IMG/VR virus record: IMGVR_UViG_3300046786_000121 | Span: 31,829-95,828 of that record | Reading direction: 5' to 3' (one strand) | DNA length: 64,000 bases | Source: a virus | Part shown: positions 60,396-63,757 of the stretch, piece after piece | Position numbering within the stretch: the first letter of the stretch is position 1 | Layout: each line of letters begins with the position of its first letter | The notes under the pieces: generated by a model | The model's database searches: none | Seen by the model: only the letters and a program-made list of their open reading frames with translations | What the model was told of the DNA's origin: nothing | Position numbers and translations under genes: made by a program

Positions 60396-61607
60396 TTAGC
60401 CTGCGTCTTTCTCGTAGATAACAGTCTGTCCAAAGGGTGCTTCTGCGTCTGTGTTGCCTTTGACAATGAAGATAGTATCTACTTGATCCTCAGGACCCCA
60501 ACTGCCGCAAGGGTAGCCGTCTGTGAACATAATGAACTTCTTAGCCTCAATGCCTTCGTCAAGCATGAACTGGAAGTTAATATCAAAGTCAGTGCCGCCA
60601 CCGCCTTGAGGTTCGTAGTCCAAGAGGTCCAAACTGTTGTCTTGAGTAATCTTGACATAGTTGTAGATCTGTGTATCAAAGCACCACAGGTGAATACTGA
60701 AGTCCTCGTACTGGTCCATGATACCTTTAACTTCGCTGAGGAAGGTAGAAGCATCTTCTGTGCCAATACTGCCCGACATATCAACTGCAATAGCCACGTC
60801 AATAGTAGTATCCTGACGCATACCTGGGAGGATTGCGCCGCTGTGCATACTCTTACGATTAGGGCGAGTGAAGCTGTAATCGTTGCGGATAATGCTTTGG
60901 ATCTCTTGACGGATCAACTGGCGCCAGCTAATCTTAGGCTCAGTCATGTCCTTGATCAAACGCTGGATACCTGCGGGCACTTTACCTGCGCCAGCGGCAC
61001 TTGCACTCTGCACCATTGCTTCTTTGATCTCATCACGGATGCGTTGTGCGTCTTCCTTAGAGATAGTAGGGCGTCCGCCTTTGCCTTTCTCGCCTTCTTC
61101 ACCTTCACCGCCTGGGCTGTTGCCGTCCTCGTTGATGTGTTCGTCCAGCAAGTCGCCGAGCTGTTGCAAGAGTTGAGGCATACTGATCTTCTCTGCTTTA
61201 TCGTAGAGCTCGTCGTAGATCTCTTCCCATGCCATGCCACGATACTTGTTATCCTGGCAAATCTTTACTTCAGTAATCTTGTCGCCGATGCGCTCGTCTA
61301 CAAGGATCTGATTGACAGCAAAGTCCTGCGCGATGTTACTCAGTTGACGATCGCGGCTACCAACACGCCCAAAGTGATCAAACACGCAGTGGCAGATCTC
61401 GTGTCCGAACAAGAACTCCAGCTTCTTAATGCTGAGCTTTTGCACGAACTTGGTGTTGTAATAGAAGTCGCGTCCGTTAGTAGCGGCAGTAGGACACCAG
61501 TCGTCTGCTTCGATAAGACGCATACGAGTTGCCATGTTGCCAAAGAAAGGCGCTTTGAGTAGCAAGCCTACTCGGGCTGTGGTTAGTTTCTCGACGATTG
61601 GATCCAT
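60396..61607 (-). CDS. DUF2201-type metallopeptidase-like + VWA domain protein
   Basis: TAATNG, HEICH (HExxH), VDMSGS MIDAS, GGGGTDF, FTDGY. Confidence 0.92.
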   Translation of the reverse strand: MDPIVEKLTTARVGLLLKAPFFGNMATRMRLIEADDWCPTAATNGRDFYYNTKFVQKLSIKKLEFLFGHEICHCVFDHFGRVGSRDRQLSNIAQDFAVNQILVDERIGDKITEVKICQDNKYRGMAWEEIYDELYDKAEKISMPQLLQQLGDLLDEHINEDGNSPGGEGEEGEKGKGGRPTISKEDAQRIRDEIKEAMVQSASAAGAGKVPAGIQRLIKDMTEPKISWRQLIRQEIQSIIRNDYSFTRPNRKSMHSGAILPGMRQDTTIDVAIAVDMSGSIGTEDASTFLSEVKGIMDQYEDFSIHLWCFDTQIYNYVKITQDNSLDLLDYEPQGGGGTDFDINFQFMLDEGIEAKKFIMFTDGYPCGSWGPEDQVDTIFIVKGNTDAEAPFGQTVIYEKDAG

Positions 61608-61639
61608 GTTTCGCTTCCTAGTGTTGTCTGTATGTATAT

Positions 61640-61668
61640 ATTATACAATCAGACGTTGCCTCTGTCAA
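61640..61668 (-). promoter_or_regulatory. Early promoter cassette 15
   Basis: TTGACA-17-TATAAT, abutting a terminator. Confidence 0.9.
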
Positions 61669-61670
61669 CC

Positions 61671-61707
61671 AAAAAAGGAGGGAGAGTGAACCTAAATCCA
61701 CTCTCCC
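61671..61707 (-). terminator. Intrinsic terminator
   Basis: GGGAGAGTG/CACTCTCCC stem plus U6. Confidence 0.8.
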
Positions 61708-61716
61708 CTGCAATGG

Positions 61717-62822
61717 GCGAGGTCTTAATTCTCCATTGCAGAAAGCACATACTTACCAAAACGCTTGTGGAATTCGTCGAATGACTTCATCTTAGTAGCG
61801 TCGAAGGGCAAGTTATAGTTAGTCAAGCCAGTCTTGGCACCCATCACAACCAGCTCGGTTGGGAAGTTGTCCATCATGTAACGGAAGAAGCAGTCTGCCA
61901 TTTCGTCAAACTTCTTGTTCTTCTTCTCTGCTTGATCCTTGAGCTCGTAGCACAATGACACGGTCAAGGAATACATCGCTGAGACTTCCTTAATCTGCAA
62001 GTCTTTAACCTTGCCTTCAAGGATGTCAATTGCCTTAGGCAAACGACCTGCAATCTTGCGGTGAGCCATAAACTTAACAGCCAAGCCATCGCCAACAGCA
62101 CCAGCAACCAAGTTGTGGAGAGTGTCAATGTCAGTGTCGTCGTCTTTGAGCAAGTCGCTCACGAACACCCAAGAACGAGGAGTTGCGAATGCCTTGCTAG
62201 GACTCTTTGGATCAAAGTCATACAAGTCCTGCTTGGCAAAGCCCACATAACCAAGAACCTCAGGGTGGATTGCGTTCATAACAGCCCACTCTTGGAAGTC
62301 GTCAAAGTCAACCTTGGCTTCCAAGTGAATGAAGCGGTTAGCCAACGGAGCAGGCATACGGTATGTCACGCCACGATCGCCTTCACGGTTACCAGCGGCA
62401 ACCACGTCAACACCCTTAGGCAGTTCGTAGGTACCAACACGGCGGTTCAGGATCAACTGATATGCCGCGGCTTGCACAGCTGGAGGAGCGGAGTTAAGCT
62501 CGTCCAAGAAGATGATTGCTGTGGACTCAGGGTCTGTAGGCAGTTCAGCTGGGGGAGCCCAAACCATTGCGCCTTTGTCTGAGTTGTAATAAGGGATACC
62601 TTTGATGTCAGTAGGTTCCCACAATGCCAGACGCACGTCAACGACTTCGCGACCTGCATCTTCGCCAATTTGCTTGACGATATCGGATTTACCAATGCCT
62701 GGAGGACCCCACAGGAACACTGGACGGCGGGTGCCGATTGCTTTACGAATAGAACGCTTCGCGGCTTTTGGACCAACTTGGCGGACGGACATATCTGAAG
62801 ATTTTGCCATTTAAGACCTCGC
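61717..62822. repeat. Perfect 12-bp inverted repeat bracketing the MoxR gene
   Basis: GCGAGGTCTTAA at 61717-61728 and TTAAGACCTCGC at 62811-62822. Confidence 0.92.
61725..62810 (-). CDS. MoxR-family AAA+ ATPase
   Basis: WGPPGIGKS, IFLDELN, AAGNR, PLANRF, TPRSW. Confidence 0.93.
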   Translation of the reverse strand: MAKSSDMSVRQVGPKAAKRSIRKAIGTRRPVFLWGPPGIGKSDIVKQIGEDAGREVVDVRLALWEPTDIKGIPYYNSDKGAMVWAPPAELPTDPESTAIIFLDELNSAPPAVQAAAYQLILNRRVGTYELPKGVDVVAAGNREGDRGVTYRMPAPLANRFIHLEAKVDFDDFQEWAVMNAIHPEVLGYVGFAKQDLYDFDPKSPSKAFATPRSWVFVSDLLKDDDTDIDTLHNLVAGAVGDGLAVKFMAHRKIAGRLPKAIDILEGKVKDLQIKEVSAMYSLTVSLCYELKDQAEKKNKKFDEMADCFFRYMMDNFPTELVVMGAKTGLTNYNLPFDATKMKSFDEFHKRFGKYVLSAMEN

Positions 62823-62862
62823 TTTAAGAAAATTAAAAGTTACTGTGTTTCTCAGTGTCTAA

Positions 62863-62891
62863 AGTATAGCACCGAAGTGCCGTCCTGTCAA
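62863..62891 (-). promoter_or_regulatory. Early promoter cassette 16
   Basis: TTGACA-17-TATACT; GCAC-TTCG-GTGC in the spacer. Confidence 0.88.
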
Positions 62892-63640
62892 CCGGTTTTC
62901 TTCACATAATTCAACTGAGTAGTCTTGTCATCGCGTTGGGCTTTGATCTTAGCCTTGATGCGATGCTCTGAGTCCTTAGACAAGTCTGAGGGGAACCAGA
63001 AGTCAACAAACGATTCTCCCATGCGGGCCTGAATGCGATACTTATTGTATTCTTTGTTGAATCGTGTAGTGACAACAGTAATGTCGCCTACTATAGTGTC
63101 CCCTACATTCCCGGCGAGCTGTACGCTGCTGTAGACTTCACGCTTGACTTCTTGATTAACACGATCACGACGTGCGATGCTAGGGAGGCAACTGATGATT
63201 GCGAACTCCAGCATATTGCGTCCGGTGAACTGCTCGATGCAGGAAATCTTGTATGCCTGGGACTGGAACTCGTTGAGTCCGCCAGCGATAGCTTTCATTG
63301 TGTAGCTTGTGAAGTGTCTGCGATACTCTTCGCCTGCTTGACGATCTTCCTCAGTGACGAGGCTGAAGTCGTTCTTCTGTAGGCATTCGCGAACGATACG
63401 CTTGTTAGCACGTTTCGAGATCTCGGAAGTGTCTTGTCCTGTAACGATCCACTGATCCTCTTTGAGGTAGCCGCCATTGATACGATCAACTGCTGCTGCT
63501 AAGGCCCAGACATCTGCTGCTTGGAACACTGACGGGACTCTGACTTGAGTCATACGTGGCTCTTCGTAGTCGTCATCCTCGTGACCCAGACGCTGGATAT
63601 CACGTCTGCTCCATCCACTTACATCTACGAATCCTGGCAT
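62888..63640 (-). CDS. Hypothetical protein with OB-fold-like C-terminus
   Basis: SD AAGGAG; G.VGD.I...I.V...IKAKIK......T.LNYVK. Confidence 0.75.
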   Translation of the reverse strand: MPGFVDVSGWSRRDIQRLGHEDDDYEEPRMTQVRVPSVFQAADVWALAAAVDRINGGYLKEDQWIVTGQDTSEISKRANKRIVRECLQKNDFSLVTEEDRQAGEEYRRHFTSYTMKAIAGGLNEFQSQAYKISCIEQFTGRNMLEFAIISCLPSIARRDRVNQEVKREVYSSVQLAGNVGDTIVGDITVVTTRFNKEYNKYRIQARMGESFVDFWFPSDLSKDSEHRIKAKIKAQRDDKTTQLNYVKKTG

Positions 63641-63741: not shown

Positions 63742-63757
63742 CCGGGAGCGAATCGGT
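63742..63757 (-). repeat. 16-nt 3'-UTR hairpin element, copy 2
   Basis: ACCGATTCGCTCCCGG, identical at 56260-56275. Confidence 0.9.

Follow-up and report, generated by a model that had tools for sequence, protein, structure and literature searches.

In the icaR mRNA of Staphylococcus aureus, a motif in the 3' untranslated region (UTR) pairs with the Shine-Dalgarno (SD) sequence, such that initiation is blocked and a substrate for RNase III is created (Ruiz de los Mozos et al., 2013; PMC3868564). In the hok mRNA of plasmid R1, the partner of the 3' element fbi is tac, at the extreme 5' end; the SD is masked by a separate upstream box, slow 3' trimming activates the message, and the system includes an antisense RNA, Sok (PMC9841398). 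A 14-bp pairing of the 5' UTR with the 3' UTR of the Bacillus subtilis hbs mRNA controls the access of RNases rather than the SD (Braun et al., 2017; PMC5737220), and the Vibrio cholerae transcripts OppZ and CarZ are small RNAs (sRNAs) that RNase E releases from 3' UTRs and that, together with Hfq, act in trans to repress a translation start of their own parent transcripts (Hoyos et al., 2020; PMC7398697). Most recently, sequences complementary to a ribosome-binding site (RBS), termed anti-RBS 8-mers, were reported to pair with the RBS in vivo from +467 nt (in the coding sequence, CDS) and +831 nt (in the 3' UTR); in B. subtilis reporters such distal 8-mers reduced mRNA levels and blocked initiation, and as anti-RBS sequences are depleted from natural genes, these contacts were argued to be potent and normally selected against (Gill et al., 2025, preprint; PMC12697547). 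Here we analyse a 64-kb stretch of DNA from a giant uncultured lake phage (hereafter the window), the last 64 kb of the 95.8-kb IMG/VR record IMGVR_UViG_3300046786_000121, in which the mRNA of a minus-strand gene for a MoxR-like AAA+ ATPase (moxR) carries at its stop codon, in the loop of a hairpin, a sequence complementary to its own RBS. Judged by comparison of orthologous loci, it is very probable that the finished moxR message closes by folding onto its own translation start.

The two partners, which would form a long-range helix termed S2, lie 1.08 kb apart along the mRNA and are complementary at 12 of 12 nt (Table 1). The 3' partner, or anti-RBS, fills the 3'-terminal 12 nt of the loop (16 nt, 61732-61717) in a presenting hairpin, S1, and adjoins the 3' arm of its stem; the stem of the intrinsic terminator begins at 61708, directly at the end of this arm, within a 3' UTR of ~55 nt. 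An earlier note on this DNA had described both the exact complement between the 12 nt ahead of the ATG and the 12 nt spanning the stop, and the placement of the 3' copy within the loop of a 9-bp stem just before the terminator; sequence and coordinates proved correct in our hands. An Rfam scan of positions 61400-63100 on both strands, with E-values up to 1, returned no covariance-model match. Two motifs in the S1 loop were also considered and rejected as too short to beat chance: a YUNR U-turn formed by a pyrimidine and the stop codon, and an RNase E-like GAAUU, which is absent in the AAC-codon variants.

A 64-kb window should hold approximately seven to eight 12-nt inverted repeats within 2 kb (estimated as 64000 x 2000 pairs x 4^-12), so the bare match alone proves little and could be taken for a functionless coincidence. 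That explanation is opposed by the defined positions of the two copies, by their uniqueness and, above all, by compensatory change across ~56 orthologous loci (described below). The 12-mer is present at just these two sites in the window, and its 9-nt core has no other occurrence in the whole 95.8-kb record. When the RBS region (-22 to +3) of each of the 81 called genes was set against its own 3' end (stop -12 to +60), moxR was the only gene with such a complement, all others reaching 7 nt or fewer; amongst non-cognate pairings of RBS and 3' end, 3 of 6480 reached 10 nt or more. The assertion that chance is a very unlikely source of the match is thus well founded, and we assign coincidence practically no weight.

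As a means of checking the pairing, it had been proposed that orthologues be aligned and searched for compensatory changes between the RBS and the post-stop loop. This was carried out with the best 80 of hundreds of IMG/VR relatives and with ~60 further loci at 67-74 % identity, and the outcome was positive. All loci at 77-95 % amino acid identity that retain both flanks (~56) have a complement of 7-13 nt between the bases ahead of the ATG and those at or just after the stop codon. The two sides vary jointly, with many two-sided changes and at least 10 distinct covarying haplotype types (examples are listed in Table 1), and the stops TAA, TAG and TGA are matched by TTA, CTA and TCA ahead of the ATG. 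In a CDS tree from which the paired parts were excluded, the TAG, ACGAGG and GGAGG types were each found in two separate clades. Across 44 distinct haplotype pairs, the mean duplex energy was -16.6 kcal/mol for cognate versus -13.7 kcal/mol for non-cognate partners, and none of 20000 permutations matched the observed cognate value. As the new states on both sides are complementary, shared ancestry explains the sharing of states, not their complementarity. As far as comparative analysis goes, the RBS and post-stop sites are established as coevolving base-pairing partners.

Table 1. Features of the moxR locus in the window, and variants of helix S2 at orthologous loci (for variants, 5' arm / 3' arm)
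Feature	Position	Strand	Sequence	Details
S2, 5' arm	62811..62822	-	GCGAGGTCTTAA	SD GAGG (62820-62817) and entire spacer to the ATG
S2, 3' arm (anti-RBS)	61717..61728	-	TTAAGACCTCGC	Exact reverse complement of GCGAGGTCTTAA; includes the TAA stop
S1, 5' arm	61733..61741	-	CTGCAATGG	Within the last codons, Ser-Ala-Met-Glu
S1, 3' arm	61708..61716	-	CCATTGCAG	9-bp stem
moxR CDS	61725..62810	-		MoxR-like AAA+ ATPase, 361 aa; TAA stop 61727-61725
moxR promoter	62863..62891	-	TTGACA/17 nt/TATACT	Sigma70 type; 11/12 consensus matches; arrangement recurs at orthologous loci
Predicted mRNA 5' end, conserved leader motif	62849..62856	-	ACTGAGAA	Putative start at 62856, 7 nt past the -10 box
Intrinsic terminator (mRNA 3' end)	61671..61708	-		13-bp stem and 4-nt loop; stem 61708-61679, T run 61676-61671
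Downstream partner gene	60396..61607	-		Metallopeptidase-like DUF2201_N and VWA-like DUF2201; own promoter 61668-61640; outside the RNA element
S2 variant			GAGGTTA / TAACCTC	L015; 2-nt loss matched on both sides
S2 variant			AGGGGTCTTA / TAAGACCCCT	L029
S2 variant			AGGTCTAG / CTAGACCT	TAG-stop loci L034-39, L035/36
S2 variant			GGAGAGGTCA / TGACCTCTCC	L043; TGA stop
S2 variant			AGGGGGTTT / AAACCCCCT	L059
S2 variant			ACGAGG / CCTCGT	L048, L049, L164
S2 variant			GGAGG / CCTCC	L028/32/42, L058
S2 variant			ACTGGAG / CTCCAGT	L025
S2 variant			CCGAGTGGA / TCCACTCGG	L165

Whether the complement is one of RNA or of DNA can be approached through the presenting hairpin, for which covariation was scored by counting pairs of the named stem. 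The S1 pair at the Ala wobble base is UA in 13 sequences, AU in 11, CG in 6 and GC in 4 (3 unpaired), and so takes all four Watson-Crick forms; for a neighbouring pair, 23 sequences have U-A and 12 have U.G. As these 12 U.G pairs would be A.C mismatches on the other strand, S1 is, on the evidence of its substitutions, an RNA structure of the sense strand. Overall, 84.7 % of S1 cells are paired, compared with 76.8 % after shuffling (a value of 84.7 % was reached in 0 of 500 shuffles) and 30-48 % when the partner was slid. S1 was missed by RNAalifold when the 3' regions were aligned with MAFFT, because indels displaced the 3' arm. At nearly every S1-bearing locus, including L165, where the sequence is all different, the complement directly adjoins the S1 3' arm, such that both helices could stack.

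The alternative raised previously was a role of the inverted repeat at the DNA level; it might act as a site of recombination or inversion, or as two operator half-sites of one DNA-looping protein. The repeat does bracket the moxR ORF exactly, and homogenization of repeats or coevolution with a binding protein could also yield covariation. However, the hairpin that displays the 3' copy in its loop has stem U.G pairs on the mRNA strand only, arms of 7-13 bp are short for recombination, no recombinase gene adjoins moxR, and the ~55 orthologous loci with flanks all keep the same gene orientation from promoter to terminator, with no sign of inversion. Moreover, the matched 2-nt deletions (L015) and the drift of the complement relative to the stop codon suit base pairing better than a protein site. 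As such, we regard a DNA-level function as very improbable; pairing of the RBS with the post-stop loop as RNA, the explanation favoured in the earlier note, is upheld by the compensatory changes in orthologues, the sense-strand wobbles of S1 and the folding of the whole mRNA.

In isolation, the 3' end was predicted to fold into S1 and the terminator (-33.8 kcal/mol, z -4.47), and the 5' UTR to be unstructured (-4.4 kcal/mol, z +1.19). In the full 1185-nt mRNA, the 12-bp helix between RBS and 3' end was present in both the minimum free energy and centroid structures, and the ensemble probability that the 12 nt ahead of the ATG are paired with the 3' region was 0.97, as opposed to 0.00 for two neighbouring genes used as controls. 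The same probability for eleven orthologues of differing haplotype was 0.52, 0.69, 0.77, 0.06, 0.84, 0.53, 0.73, 0.49, 0.02, 0.18 and 0.88, and thus lay between 0.49 and 0.88 in eight of them. Folding was nested, meaning that S2 was forced to compete with S1, and a pseudoknot-aware model might raise these values. The mean unpaired probability of the RBS was 0.03 in the complete mRNA versus 0.54 when the 3' UTR and the final 30 nt of the CDS were removed, and the predicted duplex energy of S2 (-20.6 kcal/mol) is far stronger than that of pairing between SD and 16S rRNA. Under these models, closure of the message is favoured thermodynamically.

We infer repression, cis action and coupling to termination alike from the pairing, and consider repression of translation in cis to be the most likely function, and a probable one. 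In such a scheme, ribosomes would load onto the open 5' UTR during transcription; once the last ~60 nt had been transcribed, the S1 loop could capture the SD and spacer, and the finished message, closed on itself, would admit little further initiation and probably have a shortened or altered lifetime. The suggestion that moxR is translated only while nascent, which would make the pairing a timer or dose limiter, would fit both the unstructured 5' UTR and the modelled accessibility of the RBS (0.54 versus 0.03). With the stop codon inside the anti-RBS and the 5' arm of S1 made up of codons, both helices must be melted by any ribosome arriving at the stop; closure would accordingly be disrupted briefly at every pass, and should prevail only once ribosomes become sparse on the message. 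It is implausible that 3' trimming activates moxR as it does hok, because trimming would remove the stop codon. With no spacer between S1 (9 bp) and S2 (12 bp), a stacked helix of ~21 bp is possible, and it is conceivable that this would present a substrate of the size used by RNase III.

A more elaborate and rather doubtful version of the same idea is a termination-coupled 'use it or lose it' switch contained in one mRNA. Each terminating ribosome would strip the closure and free the RBS, held nearby, for one more initiation, such that the message would be open only under dense ribosome traffic. A drop in traffic would lead to an irreversible lock, and RNase III would perhaps cleave the stacked helix of ~21 bp; those orthologues whose 5' terminus also matches the terminator loop would have an mRNA in the form of a true closed loop. 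Were this correct, a phage early gene would possess a built-in shut-off that calls for no trans factor.

Several observations weigh against repression in cis. The complement lies 18 nt past the stop in L027 and a few nt past it in L054, L052 and L046, and hence overlap with the stop codon is usual, not obligatory. Sister clades at 67-74 % identity (~80 loci) have no conserved complement and carry a plain terminator instead. The folding probability was low in three of 12 orthologues (L034, 0.06; L025, 0.02; L048, 0.18). By geometric estimate, a 12-bp helix within a closed 16-nt loop would be sterically tight, with AGAA (4 nt) as the only bridge, which means that either fewer S2 pairs form or S1 frays. 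Furthermore, G.U pairs are scarce within S2, and the assignment of this helix to a strand therefore relies mainly on S1. Finally, loops that match the RBSs of other genes occur in this phage group, and such loops can work in trans or on read-through transcripts. Separately, one locus at 67 % identity, L157, has a complement between RBS and post-stop region (GGAGCAA/TTGCTCC, 395-400 and ~1480-1490) that is absent in its sister L161 and was treated as chance, and a search with L059, the most divergent carrier, revealed no close kin of that locus.

The same pairing might act in trans, with a stable 3' fragment (S1 plus terminator), or contacts from one mRNA to another, masking the RBS of other moxR messages in a concentration-dependent negative feedback. 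The 3' end does have an sRNA-like build, with a seed in the loop and, after it, a strong terminator hairpin that ends in a U tail; the loops of two further 3'-UTR hairpins in the window (56275-56260 and 63757-63742) are complementary to AGGAGCG(A), an RBS found at other early genes; OppZ and CarZ provide a published precedent (PMC7398697); and for icaR, too, the authors were unable to separate cis from trans (PMC3868564). Nevertheless, the target tag is private to moxR, with a single RBS copy in 95.8 kb, and neither the near-constant placement on the stop codon nor the coding 5' arm of S1 would have a purpose in trans. By our own reasoning from general kinetics, intramolecular pairing should also outpace bimolecular pairing at cellular mRNA levels, and no processing site or internal promoter was identified, with contigs being unable to show RNA ends. 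We thus hold action in trans to be unlikely and retain masking in cis as the preferred reading.

With regard to the two additional hairpins (56275-56260 and 63757-63742, minus strand), their loops are identical, AUUCGCUCC, and complementary to the AGGAGCG(A) RBS of three early genes (63651-63645, 58515-58509 and 58998-58992). The first of these sites belongs to the gene directly upstream of moxR and lies ~100 nt downstream of one AUUCGCUCC hairpin, past a terminator and a promoter; to judge by complementarity, the loop could mask this RBS on read-through transcripts, or work in trans. RNA contigs of runs X9 and X4 end at 63747 and 63762, respectively, with adapter letters attached; both positions are upstream of the terminator that belongs to the anti-AGGAGCG hairpin, and fall within this hairpin or next to it. 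These ends may mark an RNA end or processing site, which contigs cannot prove.

A different explanation is that the pairing is mainly non-inhibitory, with joined ends shielding the mRNA from RNases, or with the stop held beside the start such that ribosomes can re-initiate. In most orthologues the stop codon pairs with the three bases ahead of the ATG, and stop identity covaries; many orthologues, although not the window, also have a 5' leader motif complementary to the terminator loop, which would give two tie points; and in hbs, the 14-bp pairing of 5' and 3' UTRs modulates RNase cleavage with the SD not blocked (PMC5737220). In disagreement with this, however, the moxR helix covers the SD and the whole spacer, which is incompatible with binding of the 30S subunit while it is formed, and published distant anti-RBS sequences lower expression (PMC3868564, PMC12697547). 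The complementarity of leader and terminator loop is itself unsecured, with two independent pairs on supported branches (p 0.5). We therefore consider a mainly non-inhibitory closed loop to be a slender prospect, and a helix that represses initiation in cis the better account of the pairing.

The leader motif in question is CTGAGAA (in some cases CTGGGA) at the predicted mRNA 5' end in orthologues L001-L060, complementary to the terminator apex TTCTCAG (CCCAG in exactly the CTGGGA loci); the contrast can be seen, for example, between L001, L004, L034 and L057 on the one hand and L029, L030, L041, L048, L053 and L054 on the other, and L055 has CTGGGA with TTCTCAG, still with one G.U pair. The counts for this association were 41/7/1/0, which, given the two independent pairs, leaves it not established. 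Within the window no clear complement was detected between the 5' end and the terminator (61679-61708), the best duplex having an energy of -8.0 kcal/mol. If real, the leader complement would be a hok-like tie of the two mRNA ends. In many orthologues, L001, L002 and L004 among them, a further conserved hairpin (GGGGTGTTG...CAACA) is found ~60-90 nt past the stop, after the terminator. Where these orthologues carry it, the window has the next promoter, and in L026, L047 and L043 a hairpin of the GGGGTGTTG type itself acts as terminator.

The record has a CheckV completeness of 27 %, which corresponds to a genome of roughly 350 kb. The region surrounding moxR is a series of early-type units on the minus strand, each with a near-perfect sigma70 promoter and often a terminator. 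Between 54000 and 64000 on this strand there are seven promoters with 12/12 matches (TTGACA, 17 nt, TATAAT) and several with 11/12 within 10 kb, and 25 promoter-like sites in all versus 11.2 expected. The moxR product passes the Pfam cut-offs for AAA_5 (E-value 1.4e-8, 35.3 bits, cut-off 22) and AAA_3 (E-value 3.1e-7, 30.8 bits, cut-off 27), and scores under the cut-off for the bpMoxR model; both a MoxR-type gene and an adjoining gene for a VWA-domain partner are therefore present. The gene upstream of moxR specifies 250 aa without a Pfam match, and its TGA stop (62890-62888) sits within the TTGACA -35 box of the moxR promoter. No terminator lies between the two genes, and a bicistronic moxR transcript is thus also possible. 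The moxR mRNA of ~1185 nt can be monocistronic, running from a likely 5' end at ~62856 to the terminator, and the distance from the leader motif to the -10 box is constant in nearly all orthologues.

At 95 % identity or more, moxR is covered by contigs from four freshwater metatranscriptome runs, one from each of four studies. As assembled contigs, they prove presence in RNA libraries, not transcript ends or expression level; this holds equally for gaps in their coverage, for differences in depth and for ends near 62832-62843, where contigs from two runs stop (at 62843 and 62832) and give a weak hint only of the mRNA 5' end. A blastn search against cultured phages gave only 69 % identity over 375 nt, to jumbo Pseudomonas phages of the PA5oct-like kind, and yielded no locus that could inform on the UTRs. 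Relatives L164-L170 (genome_contigs) were located in metagenome-assembled genomes labelled Beijerinckia, Fluviibacter, Rickettsiales, Haliscomenobacter, Aquiluna and Bacteroidetes; phage contigs in six such unrelated taxa are most likely binning artefacts and hence carry no host signal.

Taken as a natural contact over 1.1 kb between an RBS and the 3' end of its message, positively maintained through dozens of matched mutations, the moxR pairing is among the best comparative cases of functional 5'-3' pairing in an mRNA of prokaryotic type, and one in a phage setting. Its geometry, with the stop codon inside an anti-RBS displayed in a loop, makes cis action, reset by terminating ribosomes and timed shut-off of an early gene directly testable. 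The element is also small and orthogonal (a 12-nt tag and a hairpin of ~35 nt), and could be built into synthetic constructs as a portable dose limiter.

With respect to known systems, an early phage example is said to have come from Saito and Richardson in 1981, who reportedly found for T7 genes 1.1 and 1.2 that the 3'-terminal sequence of an early mRNA can pair with an upstream ribosome-binding region and so lower translation. There, by the same account, translation recovers when RNase III processes the early transcript, which is polycistronic, a point of difference from moxR. OppZ and CarZ resemble the moxR 3' end in that a seed for the translation start of the own transcript is followed by a Rho-independent terminator, but they are released fragments that act in trans, whereas the stop-codon geometry of moxR suggests action in cis. 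With hbs, moxR shares long-range UTR pairing inside one mRNA, of similar length (14 bp compared with 12 bp). The sequences of Gill et al. (2025; PMC12697547) were engineered 8-mers, whereas the one in moxR is a natural 12-mer that is positively conserved, and it is notable for this very reason, given that natural genes avoid anti-RBS sequences.

The comparison with hok, drawn in the earlier note, holds in a loose sense only. In both cases a 3'-terminal element pairs with the 5' region, the full-length mRNA is (or, for moxR, would be) closed and untranslated, and nascent and finished structures differ. What does not carry over is the target: in hok the SD is masked by a box other than fbi, whose own partner is the extreme 5' end, whereas the moxR element pairs with the SD itself, and no pairing at the extreme 5' end was found in the window. 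Nor does moxR have a counterpart of the metastable 5' fold and upstream SD box of hok, its 5' UTR being the unstructured one described above, and its product is a 361-aa AAA+ ATPase rather than a toxin peptide. In icaR, as in moxR, a 3' sequence complements the SD region of its own message, and ambiguity between cis and trans is common to both. The icaR motif, UCCCCUG, lies in a long 3' UTR (selected as >100 nt) and belongs to a complementary region of ~40 nt (PMC3868564), whereas in moxR the 3' UTR is ~55 nt and the complement sits on the stop codon, shown in a hairpin loop with a coding 5' arm. Furthermore, the icaR authors infer that folding of the 5' UTR restricts 30S binding as the message is being transcribed, in contrast to the unstructured 5' UTR of moxR; and moxR is a phage gene, without sequence homology to icaR, for which the evidence is comparative only. 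On balance, icaR is a closer precedent than hok, and the moxR pairing is best read as a mechanism of the icaR kind, by analogy and not by homology.

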